DNA of 64,000 bases from an uncultured delta proteobacterium (GTDB taxonomy: Bacteria > Desulfobacterota > Binatia > Binatales > Binataceae). Below the pieces are notes generated by a model. The model made no database searches and was not told where the DNA came from. It saw nothing but the letters and a program-made list of their open reading frames with translations. Shown in pieces: positions 32,161 to 57,160 of this stretch. The stretch is taken from NCBI GenBank assembly GCA_963794325.1, contig CAWCDG010000009.1, positions 114,076-178,075 on the forward strand, given 5' to 3'. How positions within the stretch are numbered: position 1 is the stretch's first letter; every line of letters begins with the position of its first letter. The position numbers were made by a program, and so were the translations under genes.

Positions 32161-32170
32161 TTCTGATCCG

Positions 32171-32221
32171 TCGCCCGTTACTTCACGGGAGAGGCTAAGT
32201 GAGGGTTCTGCGACTCGAGCA
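32171..32221. repeat. REP-like element (cccgttactycacgggagagg...gtgaggg subfamily)
   Basis: Shares cccgttactYcacgggagagg and agggttctScgaYtcRagca with 57086-57160. Confidence 0.7.
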
Positions 32222-40416: not shown

Positions 40417-42375
40417 ATGGCTTCGACCGAAGCGACTCATATCGATTCGACTCTGACCGAATCCCGTAAGTTCCCGCCTCCGCCCGAGTTCAGCGAAAAG
40501 GCGTGGGTCAAAAATTTCGACGAGTATCAGGCGCTGCGCAAACGCGCTGACGAAGATCCCGACTCGTTCTGGGCCGAGTGCGCTCGCAATCTGCATTGGT
40601 TCAAGCCGTTCGGCAAAACCCTCGAGTGGGATTTCCCGAATGCAAAATGGTTCGTCGGCGGCACCATCAACGCGTCGTATAACTGCCTCGACCGCCATCT
40701 CGACACGCCGCGCCGCAACAAGGCCGCGCTGATCTGGGAAGGCGAGCCGGGCGACTCGCGCGTGCTGACCTACCAGATGCTCGCCGACGAAGTTGGCCGA
40801 TGTGCCAACGCGCTCAAGAGCCTCGGCGTCAAGGATGGCGACCGCGTCGCGATTTACATGCCGCTGGTGCCGGAGGCGGCAATCGCGATGCTCGCGTGTG
40901 CGCGAATCGGAGCGATTCACTCGGTCGTGTTCGGCGGCTTCTCGTCGGAGGCGCTGGCCGATCGGATCAACGACGCCGAAGCGAAGGTCTGTATCACCGC
41001 CGACGGCGGATGGCGTCGCGGACAGGTCGTCGAGCTCAAGCAGAATGTCGATGAAGCGCTGAAGAAGACTCCCTCGATCCAGAAAGTCCTCGTGCTCAAG
41101 CGCGTCGGCAACAAAATCGAGATGCGTAAGGGGCGCGACGTATGGTGGGACGAACTGGTCCCCGCGCAAAGCCCGAACTGCGAGGCCGCCCAGCTCGACA
41201 GCGAGCATCCGCTCTACACGCTCTACACCAGCGGCACCACCGGCAAGCCCAAGGGCGTCGTGCATACGACCGGCGGATACCTGACGCACATCCTGATGAC
41301 GATGCGCTGGGTGTTCGACCTCAAGGACGACGATATTTACTGGTGCACCGCCGATATCGGCTGGGTCACTGGTCACAGCTACACCGTGTACGGGCCGCTG
41401 GCGGCGGGCGCGACCGTCGTCATGTACGAAGGCGCGCCGAATTTTCCCGAGAACGATCGCTTCTGGAAGGTGATCGAGAAGTACAAGGTCAGCATCTTCT
41501 ACACGGCGCCTACTGCAATCCGCACCTTCATCAAATGGGGCGACTCGTGGGTCAAGAAACATGACCTGTCGAGTCTGAGATTACTCGGTTCCGTCGGCGA
41601 GCCGATCAATCCCGAAGCATGGATGTGGTATCGCAAAGTTATCGGCGGCGAGCGATGCCCGATCGTCGATACGTGGTGGCAGACCGAGACTGGCGGAATC
41701 ATGATAAGCCCGATGCCCGGCGTGACCGCCACCAAGCCCGGCTCAGCGACGTTTCCGCTGCCGGGAATCGCGGCCGACGTCGTCACGCGCGACGGCAAGA
41801 GCGTTGGCGCCAACCAGGGCGGCTTGTTGATCGTTCGCAAACCGTGGCCCGGGATGCTGCGGACGATTTACCGCGACCCCGATCGCTACAAGACTAATTA
41901 CTTCTCGCAAATCGACGACGCATATTTCACCGGCGACGGCGCGCGCCGCGACCAGGACGGCTACTTGTGGATCATGGGGCGCGTCGACGACGTCATCAAT
42001 GTGTCGGGCCATCGCCTCGGCACGATGGAAATAGAAAGCGCGCTGGTCTCGCACAAGACCGTCGCGGAAGCAGCGTGCGTCGGCCGTCCCGACGACATGA
42101 AAGGGCAGGCGGTGGTCGCATTCGTAACGCTCGAAGGCGGCCGCAAAGGCGACGACAAACTGCGCGACGAACTACGCGCCCACGTAGTGAAGGAAATCGG
42201 CGCACTCGCGCGTCCCGACGACATAAGATTCACCGAAGCCCTCCCCAAAACCCGCAGCGGGAAGATAATGCGCCGGTTGTTGCGGCAGATCGCGTCGGGC
42301 GACGAGACGTTAGGCGATACAACGACACTGGAGGACCTGTCGGTACTCTCGAAACTCCGCGACGACGACGACTAA
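40417..42375 (+). CDS. acs: acetate--CoA ligase
   Basis: [48 protein letters not shown]. Confidence 0.96.
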
Positions 42376-42420
42376 GGTACTAGTCCAATCTGAAACCAGC
42401 GCGGCGTTGTCCTGATCCTT

Positions 42421-43028
42421 AACCTCTCCTTGTCCGAGGAGAGGTCGCCGCGAGCCGAAGGCCGCGGCGGGAGTGGTGCATCGCACGACACAACACAGTG
42501 CCGATTTCTTCTTGTCGCAGCCCTTGGTACTGGGGCGCTCGCCGGCGTAAGCTATGAGTCAATCGAGCGACACAAAATGTGAAGGCAATCTCACTTCAGC
42601 ACCATCGCGCCCGCCGATTACGGCGCGATCAGACGGACGCAGAAAAGAAGCTGTGGGCGCGGCTTCGAGCGGGAAGATTCGGCGGGTTCCGATTCAGGCG
42701 GCAATTCCCGATCGGGAACTTCATTGCGGACTTCGCATGTCCTCGCGCGAGACTCGTCGTTGAGCTCGACGGCGGTCAACATCTTGAGCAGGCAGCAAAA
42801 GATGCGTGGCGAACCAGGCTAATCGAGCAGCGCGGCTACAGAGTAATTCGCTTCTGGGACGGCGAGGTTCTCACCGCGATTGACGGTGTTCTGCAGATGA
42901 TCGAGCAAGCGCTCCGCGAGAGCAATCGTGTGTAAGAGATGAAAACGTGCTGCGGTGTGTCAGGCGTTGCACCACTCCCGGATCGCTCCTTTGGCGCGCT
43001 CCGACCTCTCCTCGGACAAGGAGAGGTT
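42421..43028. mobile_element. candidate element: DUF559 gene between ~78-bp REP-like inverted repeats
   Basis: 42421-42498 and the reverse complement of 42950-43028 share a 27-nt perfect outer match (aacctctccttgtccgaggagaggtcg) plus cgggagtggtgca.cgc..gacaca. Confidence 0.7.
42579..42935 (+). CDS. DUF559 / Vsr-like endonuclease domain protein
   Basis: ARRLRRDQTDAEKKLWARLR, FRRQFPIG.FIADF, LVVELDGGQH, GYRVIRFW. Confidence 0.92.
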   Translation: MKAISLQHHRARRLRRDQTDAEKKLWARLRAGRFGGFRFRRQFPIGNFIADFACPRARLVVELDGGQHLEQAAKDAWRTRLIEQRGYRVIRFWDGEVLTAIDGVLQMIEQALRESNRV

Positions 43029-43062
43029 ATAAGAAAAGCACTTGCCTTTGAGCAACTGATAC

Positions 43063-44350
43063 TCAGTTAGTATGCAATTGACTAACTACTTCGACCACCC
43101 TCGCAGGATCGACAATGACTATTGCTACCGCGCCCACTGCGAACATGACTACGAACCCCGCCATCAACCGCAGATAGAATGCCGGCTGATGGCTGGTCCG
43201 CGCGATCGCCGACTTGAAAATCGCGTTGACACCCGCCGCCAGGGTCAGCCCGATTACCGCGTCGCGCGCCGCGCTGGTCCCCGCCTGCACGAAACCCGCC
43301 AGAGTCAGCGAGATCGCGTCGACGTCGACCAACCCGCTGATTGCGGAAACCACCATCTGACCGTTGTATCCTGCATAATGTTTGGCGACGCGGGTAATCA
43401 GCAACACCAGAGTGAATATGACGCCGAACTGGAGCGCCGGGCGGATAGAAAACGGGTTACGGAAAGTGGACTCCGCAACTGCGCTATGTTGCTTCGACTT
43501 TGCCGGCGCGCGCGTGAGCAACAATGCCGCCGCGAACCCCGCGAGCATCATCGCGGCGAACGCCGGGCTCGCGGCTATCGCGAGCGTCGGGCTGACCACC
43601 GCGACCAGCAGGAGCATCCGCGGAAACAGGATCGAATTGGCTATCACCGCATAGCGGGCTGACGATACCGCGGACTCCGGAGTATCTGCCACGACTTGCG
43701 AAATACCTGTCGTATAGGCAGTCGTCGAGGCGATAGCACCGACTATTGCAGTGAGTAATGCGCCCCGTTCGACTGCCGGTAAACTTGGTAAGGAAGTAAC
43801 CTACGTACGATACTCCGGAAACTAGTATTACGAATAGCCAGATCTTGCGCGGCTCGAAGAATTCAAAGGGTCCGTAACTGCCGGTCGGCAGCAGTGGGTA
43901 GATTATGAAAATCAGCGCGAGAAAACTCAGCGTGTCGATAAATTCGCGGTCGGAGATCGCGTCGCGCACAAAATGGCGGAGCTGATCGCGCTCGGCAAGA
44001 ATCGCCGCGAGCACGATTCCGAGTCCCGCGCCGAACTGGCGATCCGAGGTCAGGCACAGCGCACCCAGCACGAAGGTCGCGACCGCGGCGAGCTCGGTGG
44101 TGATTCCGTTGCGCTCAGGATGCTGTACGCGCATCACGAGGATCGCCCCAATGGTGCCGGCGAACAATGCGATCGCGATCGCCGCGTTGCCCAAGTGTCC
44201 CGCGACCGCTCCGAGTAGCGCGATTATCAGGAAATCCCGCATCCCCGGGCGCGGCGGACTTTTAGGTTCGGGTTCCCGCGTCCGGCCGACCAGGAATCCG
44301 ATCGTCAGCGCCAGAACGAATCCCACGGCGGGGCCAGTCAGCTCGGGCAT
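43063..44350 (-). pseudogene. MgtC/SapB-DUF4010 membrane protein, frameshifted near 43774
   Basis: N-terminal half (GMRDF, GITTELAA, IIYPLLP, VSGVSYVGY) continues in a shifted frame as ERGALLTAIVGAIASTTA...SGLVDVDAI; may be a sequencing error. Confidence 0.75.
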
Positions 44351-44399
44351 CGAGAGCGCAATGCTAGCCGAATGTGGGCGAAATTGCTTGCCGGAATTT

Positions 44400-44484
44400 A
44401 CCTCTCCCCGCCGCTGGCGACTACGTCGCTAGCGGCAAACCGGGAGAGGTCGTCTGACGACGTGAGTCGTCGGACGGGTGAGGG
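44400..44484. repeat. REP-like element with nested hairpins
   Basis: cctctccc-[gccgctggcgac tac gtcgctagcggc]-gggagaggtcg-[tctgacgac gtga gtcgtcgga]-cgggtgaggg; same architecture as the DUF559 flanks. Confidence 0.8.
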
Positions 44485-44537
44485 CGTTGGACCCGCCTTG
44501 CTGACACCTTGTCCGCGGTGGTATCTTTCACGGTTGG

Positions 44538-57085: not shown

Positions 57086-57160
57086 ACCTCTCCCGTTACT
57101 CCACGGGAGAGGAGGCTGCCCGCAACGCGACCAGTAACTCAGGGTTCTCCGATTCAAGCA
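57086..57160. repeat. REP-like element (cccgttac subfamily)
   Basis: acctctcccgttactccacgggagagg...agggttctccgattcaagca; matches 32171-32221. Confidence 0.7.

Follow-up and report, generated by a model that had tools for sequence, protein, structure and literature searches.

A DUF559 nuclease gene enclosed by inverted hairpin-bearing repeats in a Binataceae genome: a candidate nuclease-plus-cognate-repeat module

The genome of an uncultured delta proteobacterium of the family Binataceae (assembly GCA_963794325.1) contains a small gene encoding a nuclease of the DUF559 family, which is enclosed by inverted repeats with a pronounced propensity to fold into hairpins. We have analysed this element in a stretch of 64,000 nucleotides of contig CAWCDG010000009.1 (positions 114,076 to 178,075), hereafter termed the window, and in the whole genome of 4.45 Mb (G000), which is assembled in 10 contigs and 85% complete. 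A first-pass annotation of the sequence had proposed that a lone gene for a protein of 118 amino acids (aa) with an intact ELDGGQH motif resides between inverted repeats of about 78 bp, in the interval separating convergent acs and DUF4010 genes. Our analysis confirms a DUF559 gene enclosed by inverted hairpin-bearing arms at 42420-43029, and the flanking genes are placed as described. The locus is composed of the following features, given in coordinates of the window:

42414..42498, plus strand: left arm, with the outer tail GATCCTTA, two hairpins, a G-rich third block and an inner part extending to 42498
42422-42445: terminal hairpin of the left arm, ACCTCTCC-TTGTCCGA-GGAGAGGT
42446-42467: second hairpin of the left arm
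42468-42480: G-rich third block of the left arm, CGGGAGTGGTGCA
42499..42578, plus strand: leader, from the left arm to the start codon
42579..42935, plus strand: DUF559 gene, 118 aa, GTG start, Pfam PF04480
42950..43029, minus strand: right arm, the left arm inverted, with its terminal hairpin at 43004-43027 and a middle hairpin of other sequence
40417..42375, plus strand: flanking acs gene, convergent with the MgtC/DUF4010 gene
43063..44350, minus strand: flanking MgtC/DUF4010 gene, convergent with acs

An inverted-repeat search of the region resolves the arms (42420-42498 and 42950-43029) into an outer pair of 42 nt with 90% complementarity (42420-42461 and 42988-43029) and an inner pair of 31 nt with 84% complementarity (42468-42498 and 42950-42980). 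The outer 28 nt of both arms are identical, and the window contains two instances of the hairpin pattern ACCTCTCC-N8-GGAGAGGT, compared to none in 100 shuffles. As proposed in the first-pass annotation, the middle parts of the arms differ in sequence, yet both arms fold better than their shuffled counterparts when treated as single-stranded DNA (ssDNA), with z-scores of –4.8 and –4.6 for the left and –2.6 and –3.4 for the right arm. A scan for sigma-70-like promoters found none in the leader, and neither a promoter and terminator scan nor an Rfam search at E-values up to 1 returned anything in or beside the arms. The counterpart of the leader in the units of two relatives (G007 and G004) carries GATTAAACGAGTCGG, which is also present in the core of the gene-less repeat doublets described below. 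Among public reads, this stretch is present in Logan contigs of soil metagenomes alone, and no RNA dataset is listed for it; the contigs break at the terminal hairpins, with the unit of 608 nt (42421-43028) appearing as a separate piece, and one low-support joint from 42457 to 43005 (side 22, run X4) probably derives from a gene-less copy. Next to the unit, the MgtC/DUF4010 gene is split into two overlapping open reading frames (ORFs; 43484..44350 and 43063..43692) by one frameshift near 43750, across which its relatives align, and it could represent either a pseudogene or an assembly error.

The encoded protein matches the Pfam profile of DUF559 with an E-value of 4e-41 (139.7 bits at a cut-off of 20.6), its residues 8-112 covering positions 4-108 of the 109 positions of the profile and including the ELDGGQH motif; its only other Pfam match is a weak one to REase_MTES_1575. 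A sequence search identified the PDB entry 3hrl at an E-value of 6e-28, and the same entry is the best fold match of an AlphaFold2 model of the protein (predicted local distance difference test score, pLDDT, of 86.4), followed by the homing endonuclease I-Bth0305I, the closest of the relatives that have been characterised (3r3p; E-value 4e-5, template modelling scores 0.66/0.78), and by Vsr of E. coli (1vsr and 1cw0; E-values 0.04-0.08). According to this model, the protein would share its fold with both enzymes, although the DUF559 gene is free-standing between repeats instead of being located in an intron or intein, and is devoid of the context of a partner cytosine methyltransferase. Prediction of a homodimer gave a score of 0.02. 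Across 66 sequences of diverse phyla, the residues T19, Q42, D51, E62, D64, G65, H68, D75 and R91 do not vary, which is consistent with a Vsr-like fold with a conserved acidic and histidine core formed by D51, E62, D64 and H68 as putative catalytic residues. Ratios of nonsynonymous to synonymous substitution rates (dN/dS) between 0.06 and 0.16 were obtained for orthologs as well as for paralogs within a genome. In light of these ratios and of a run of 71 identical nucleotides shared between the left arm and the orthologous arm of G007, both gene and arms are under strong constraint. At a synonymous divergence of 0.56-0.90 for the neighbouring genes, the arms are in fact the most conserved part of the locus, which is thus not one that is preserved without its inverted repeats.

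The arms belong to a repeat family, here termed A, which is also scattered through the genome in gene-less form, as arms, doublets and solo hairpins. The pattern of the terminal hairpin has 56 matches at two mismatches or fewer, 51 of which bear the loop of family A, and the arms of this family are found in 45 copies. About 20 pairs of family A hairpins are spaced by 197-208 nt and constitute gene-less doublets of ~226 bp; a spacing of 582 nt is found for the DUF559 unit alone, and a genome-wide inspection of the 51 hairpins revealed no other longer element with family A ends. Doublets and unit have ~75-80 nt at each end in common, with the doublet ends matching both arms of the unit, and do not share their interior. 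Positions 137-152 of the doublet core match the leader upstream of DUF559 in the units of G007 and G004. Because of these matches, the doublets look like internal-deletion derivatives of a gene-carrying element. The opposite scenario, in which the gene has simply been inserted into a doublet, was rejected, since ~75 nt of the doublet core are not found as such in the unit. The conserved inverted repeat of family A extends to (G)ATCCTAACC, and inspection by eye of 21 copies did not reveal a target-site duplication outside of it. A duplication of a TA target site, as in IS630-like elements, was also rejected, since the inverted repeat continues through ATCCTAACC with no duplication beyond.

The genome contains seven DUF559 loci, one of them a pseudogene, whose flanking inverted repeats score 56, 24, 111, 145, 94, 100 and 48 bits. 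Inverted arms of at least 48 bits are thus present at six of the seven loci, whereas not one of 700 random, crudely defined genes reaches 40 bits (maximum 30.2); an enrichment of this kind is what the first-pass annotation had suggested to test for. The lowest-scoring locus, on contig C3, has arms of the same build with other loop lengths. Together, the loci are bracketed by at least five arm families, which are present in the genome in 45 (A), 32 (B), 2 (C), 240 (D) and 7 (E) copies. Common to all is a plan consisting of a hairpin formed by a pyrimidine block and a purine block and of a third block rich in G, for example TTAGGTGAGGG or TTAGGGGTTAGG, to which families A and E add an extra hairpin between the purine block and the third block. 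A convergent orientation with a spacing of 350-450 nt is restricted to gene-carrying arm pairs. The units on contigs C5 and C6 are 87% identical across 618 bp and those termed C1 and C4b are 77% identical across 481 bp from arm to arm; gene and arms have been duplicated and inherited together as one unit.

Several features of these sister families were observed along the way. The DUF559 pseudogene at C4:950569-950881 contains a frameshift and an in-frame TGA, and its arms of 47 nt show 100% identity with one another as well as with numerous copies of family D, the arms being uniform and the gene decaying. In family D itself, a CCCCTTCCC/GGGAAGGGG hairpin precedes (GGGGTTA)n-like tails, for which G-quadruplexes are conceivable in addition to triplexes; one locus of a relative (L044) contains four consecutive GGGGTTA units. 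The DUF559 gene of family E (L005 1378-3306; C3 ~232525-234453) continues without a stop codon into tilS, resulting in a single ORF of 642 aa that encompasses DUF559 (42-145), a PP-loop domain (202-381) and TilS domains, with the right arm translated as a linker. G019 (669 aa) and G010 (677 aa) likewise have long open frames around DUF559, and G003 and G007 have shorter ones.

Within the window, the first-pass annotation had described the same architecture without the gene near 44400 and degenerate copies throughout. We did not find a family A copy in the window besides the unit, and the element near 44400 is a single arm of another family and not a pair. The window contains the following repeats of other families.

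44390..44486, plus strand: single arm of family E without a gene, with a pyrimidine/purine hairpin, a second hairpin and then GGGTGAGGGCG; the same family flanks the DUF559 gene on C3
33394-33411 and 36281-36298: hairpins of family D
57088-57111: hairpin of a sister family

The latter and ~32161-32208 are single arms resembling family C (CCTCTCCCGTTACTCCACGGGAGAGG; a match of 48 nt at 92% to the arm of the C4a locus).

The placement of a gene between two inverted copies of a repeat with further copies elsewhere in the genome supports a REPtron-like architecture, as found for the transposases associated with repetitive extragenic palindromes (REPs), termed RAYTs. Two genes of this kind (Y1_Tnp) are located on contig C4 (286943-287218, L001, and 486520-486717, L002), each flanked by its own inverted classic REPs (GTGGCACAGGCTTCAGCCTGTGAT; GTAGTGGGGCGGGCCGCC...), which start with GTAG or GTGG, are dispersed in the genome and are unlike any DUF559 arm. 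Both are classic REPtrons in a Binataceae-like genome and provide an internal positive control for the architecture, with scores of 44 and 88 bits in the flanking inverted-repeat test. Since each of them has its own, different REPs, the RAYT genes are not the source of the DUF559 arms, which had been considered as a potential explanation for the repeats. Like a REPtron, the DUF559 unit comprises a small nuclease-type gene bracketed by an inverted structured repeat, of which singlets and doublets are scattered in the genome; in both cases paralogs have their own repeat families and target-site duplications are not found. Conversely, the enzyme is a PD-(D/E)XK nuclease of the Vsr-like DUF559 family instead of a Y1/HUH transposase, and several DUF559 units may share one arm family in the same genome. 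REPs have a length of 20-40 nt with a head of the GTAG/CGTC type, whereas the DUF559 arms are composite pyrimidine/purine hairpins of ~80 nt that lack such heads and start with ATCCTAACCTCTCC. The REPtron-like reading of the first-pass annotation has thus stood with respect to the architecture and the pairing of nuclease and repeat, whereas the repeats themselves are a variant of the BoxC/PIT/TMECO type and not REPs proper.

The association extends to relatives. Each of 12 further genomes of the genus contains DUF559 genes, with 1-10 matches per genome, as does one of eight genomes from other genera of the class, and flanking inverted repeats of at least 40 bits were detected within 350 nt at 21 of the 30 loci that were retrieved from genus and class. 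In a tree of 33 DUF559 proteins across the genus, arm families coincide with protein clades, with support values of 100/99 for A (six rows), 96/99 for E, 97/91 for C, 99/96 for G, 100/99 for B together with its reversed form, and 94/91 for D; each DUF559 clade thus has its own arm family. The arm labels change 11 times on this tree (minimum 9), compared to an average of 22.6 for shuffled labels, and none of 200 shuffles performed as well. The co-phylogeny of nuclease and repeat, suggested at the outset as a way to examine their association, is observed. The unpublished genomes G027 and G032 were also covered by one of the searches, and none of our conclusions depends on them.

The site between acs and DUF4010 is found empty, solo, doublet, full or inverted-full in different species, and a look for empty sites had been suggested in the first-pass annotation:

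G023: empty, the stop codons of both genes being ~20 nt apart
G029 and G042: solo hairpin bearing the two outer tails (ATCCTAACCTCCCC-loop-GGGGAGGTTAGGAT), with a different loop orientation in each genome
G024: gene-less doublet of 252 bp
G000 and G007: full unit
G004: full unit in opposite orientation with respect to the same flanking genes
Other genomes: repeats of other families

At a second locus, a full family A unit with a stop codon in its gene, and hence a pseudogene, in G009 corresponds to a solo hairpin in G000 (C4:1722679). The solo hairpins could be deletion products of a recombination between 8-nt direct repeats in the two terminal stems, which would give exactly both of the loop orientations observed; alternatively, they could be target sites. 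A tree of acs fragments, which is poorly resolved, does not group the three genomes with a full unit together. The synonymous divergence (dS) between G000 and G007 is 0.90 for DUF559 and 0.56 for acs, and between G000 and G004 it is ~2.3 and 0.77, respectively. For the G004 unit, a simple flip would thus be no more likely than a second arrival or a replacement; the arms of this unit are too alike for an arm-by-arm comparison to tell an inversion from a re-insertion. Sites that harbour family B units in four species contain a family A doublet in G000, and other such sites are occupied by family D or RAYT-type REPs. Because different families occupy the same sites across species, these intergenic sites are shared hot spots. 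In several species, these hot spots repeatedly contain other palindromic repeats of a separate family (GTGAAACCC...GGGTTTCAC; GCAGGGGTGACCCCTGC) (L036, L044 and L129; in G000 at C6:73478-73770 and C2:124025-124381). At six loci of relatives (L035, L037, L038, L040, L041 and L043), a minus-strand gene of ~90 aa resembling a membrane protein, which is absent from the window, is located between acs and DUF4010.

The composition of the terminal hairpins hints at a structure beyond a simple stem-loop. At position 5 of the stem, the 51 hairpins contain a T.A pair in 30, a C.G pair in 19 and a non-Watson-Crick combination in two cases. When the third block is placed in the antiparallel register of a purine motif (GGAGAGG / GGGAGTGG), G.G, A.A and T.A triples are obtained, and the base opposite of position 5 is a T in 20 of 28 copies with T.A and none of the 19 copies with C.G, and a G in eight of the 19 C.G copies and none of the 28 T.A copies. 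This three-way covariation is suggestive of an intrastrand triplex whose second loop is itself a hairpin.

In their build, the arms are related to the BoxC/PIT/TMECO intrastrand-triplex repeats, for which the consensus CCCTCNCCC-N3-6-GGGNGAGGG-N3-GGGNGAGGG was reported (Holder et al., 2015, PMC4666352). The part of that paper on which we rely describes genomic instability at such loci, reports that nothing conferring mobility was identified in their vicinity, and is silent on ycjD and on endonucleases (Holder et al., 2015, PMC4666352). As far as they are described there, these repeats share with the DUF559 arms the succession of pyrimidine block, loop, purine block and G-rich third block and a location at variable intergenic loci, and both the sister families in this genome and most arms from other phyla fit or nearly fit the consensus. 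Family A differs by blocks of 7 nt, a first loop of 8 nt and a hairpin of 22-25 nt in place of N3, and does not match the strict consensus, which has eight matches in the genome, none of them on contig C9. We thus classify the 610-bp unit as the gene-carrying, autonomous-type member of a hairpin/triplex-type family that is a variant of BoxC/PIT/TMECO, with a second hairpin in place of the second loop. In a survey of many phyla, which included Alpha-, Beta- and Gammaproteobacteria, Dehalococcoidia, Nitrospira and Bacteroidota among others, flanking inverted repeats of at least 40 bits were detected at 40 of 74 DUF559 loci with complete flanks of 300 nt, and most of these repeats follow the pattern CCCTCTCCC-loop-GGGAGAGGG-TTAGGGTGAGGG, which is the BoxC/PIT/TMECO motif. 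The DUF559 gene ycjD of E. coli K-12 has a strict TMECO motif 168 nt downstream, and among the eight genomes of the class outside of the genus, the sole carrier of DUF559 (G019) contains 124 strict motifs compared to 0-1 in the others.

Considering this body of observations, we lean towards the view that the unit is a nuclease-plus-cognate-repeat module in which the nuclease plays a homing-like role, a view that we hold to be somewhat probable. The DUF559 nuclease would most likely recognise the ends of repeats of its own family in their folded state and cut there, by nicking or cleaving the hairpin or triplex that is extruded by cognate repeats. Repair by recombination with a copy that carries the gene could then spread or homogenise the repeats and move the gene between repeat copies in a homing-like manner, without generating a target-site duplication. 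Recombination between the terminal hairpins would delete the unit to leave a solo hairpin, and recombination between the arms would invert it.

Several points weigh against this view. The link between DUF559 and the repeats is positional or evolutionary in every case, from which we infer an action of the nuclease on them. At a genome completeness of 85%, a transposase bearing such ends could have escaped detection. The arm labels on the protein tree were assigned by eye, and their clustering is in part expected from linkage alone, since related loci share gene and arms by descent; against a pure orthology of the labels, family A occupies at least four different chromosomal sites. Some of the co-location of repeats may reflect shared safe-haven sites. 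The test with 700 random genes employed flanks of 250 nt, compared to 300-350 nt in the surveys of relatives, and a clear flanking inverted repeat was not found at nine of the 30 loci of genus and class and at 34 of the 74 loci from many phyla. In E. coli, the motif is located on only one side of ycjD. Finally, the three-way covariation could originate from shared descent of subfamilies, and the A found in the third block of 10 of the 19 copies with a C.G pair does not fit the triplex.

Among the alternatives, a nuclease that serves the host in a similar manner as Ssn is the one that best accounts for the data. Such an enzyme would cut structured or single-stranded DNA at the repeats to modulate recombination or transformation, or to clear hairpins and triplexes that block replication, its gene being located between its own sites as protein and site co-evolve, with the spread of the repeats as a by-product or otherwise caused. 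The proposal is compatible with a module of nuclease and cognate repeats, and we regard it as unlikely, though worth keeping in mind, as an explanation of its own. SsnA, a small single-domain nuclease, is reported to cleave its own hairpin repeats in ssDNA and to reduce transformation, and it has the same layout of NTS-ssnA-NTS (Chenal et al., 2025, PMC11893778). Both systems consist of a single-domain nuclease of ~100 aa and cognate hairpin repeats that are found on both sides and dispersed, and that are specific for a paralog or clade; Ssn differs in its nuclease superfamily, which is GIY-YIG, in its repeat class and in its demonstrated activity. The strong purifying selection on DUF559 and its retention in all 12 genomes of the genus would suit a host function, whereas copy numbers varying from 1 to 10 per genome of the genus, the pseudogenes (C4b, L010, L032), the duplication of units within a genome and the series of presence and absence at single sites resemble selfish turnover.

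Improbable in our view is that the gene is cargo in a miniature inverted-repeat transposable element (MITE) or a mobile insertion cassette that is moved in trans by an unrelated transposase, be it a RAYT, an IS200/IS605-like enzyme or another. It shares with these elements the terminal inverted repeats and the many short gene-less copies resembling internal deletions of a longer one, and the presence of ~20 gene-less doublets for one gene-carrying family A unit, of two RAYT genes and of gaps in an incomplete genome would be compatible with this idea. This would, however, require one small gene family to have become cargo of at least five arm families here and of arms in many phyla, while the gene is under purifying selection and covaries with its arm family. 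Moreover, no target-site duplications were seen in the 21 copies inspected by eye, and neither the RAYT REPs, which differ, nor any longer element among the 51 hairpins offers a transposase-bearing parent with these ends. Still more improbable are arms that act as regulatory or switch elements of an ordinary repair nuclease (as invertible on/off switches or as insulating or mRNA-stabilising hairpins), with dispersed copies that are functionally unrelated: the inverted unit of G004 and the reported enrichment of DUF559 among predicted targets of programmed inversion (odds ratio 14.3; Milman et al., 2023, PMC9881135) would speak for a switch, whereas the arms are devoid of detectable promoter- or terminator-like sites and Rfam families, the existence of arm families that are specific for a clade and have tens to hundreds of copies lacking the gene would be left unexplained, and the divergence of the G004 gene fits a replacement at least as well as a flip.

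Returning to a nuclease that acts on its cognate repeats, we tentatively extend this proposal to bacteria in general, although for such a broad claim we would stop short of calling it probable. DUF559 nucleases could be the missing partners of the bacterial BoxC/PIT/TM triplex repeats, with each clade reading its own folded repeat and the solo palindrome as homing site, and with homing-like copying, homogenisation, deletion and inversion as consequences. Rearrangements at the repeats that are driven by the nuclease would explain the genomic instability around TM motifs. DUF559 is, to our knowledge, a very large family without an assigned function, and we know of no partner protein or way of spreading for the BoxC/PIT/TM repeats, which have been known since the 1990s and for which Holder et al. 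(2015, PMC4666352) report to have found none. Literature searches, which did not cover supplements, returned no description of their pairing. New here are the seven paralogs with five arm families beside two RAYT units, the series of allelic states at a single site, the evidence for a derivation of the doublets by deletion and the three-way covariation. The genome offers a compact test bed, as it combines seven paralogs and at least five cognate repeat families with true RAYT REPtrons, which serve as internal control. If the proposal is correct, DUF559 would be the third nuclease superfamily in a cognate nuclease-repeat pairing, parallel to RAYT/REP and Ssn/NTS, and two orphans, the DUF559 family and the BoxC/PIT/TM repeats, would be assigned a testable function. 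It would also provide a reason why such loci are hot spots of rearrangement and would define a collection of small nucleases, specific for a structure or a sequence, together with the sites that match them.

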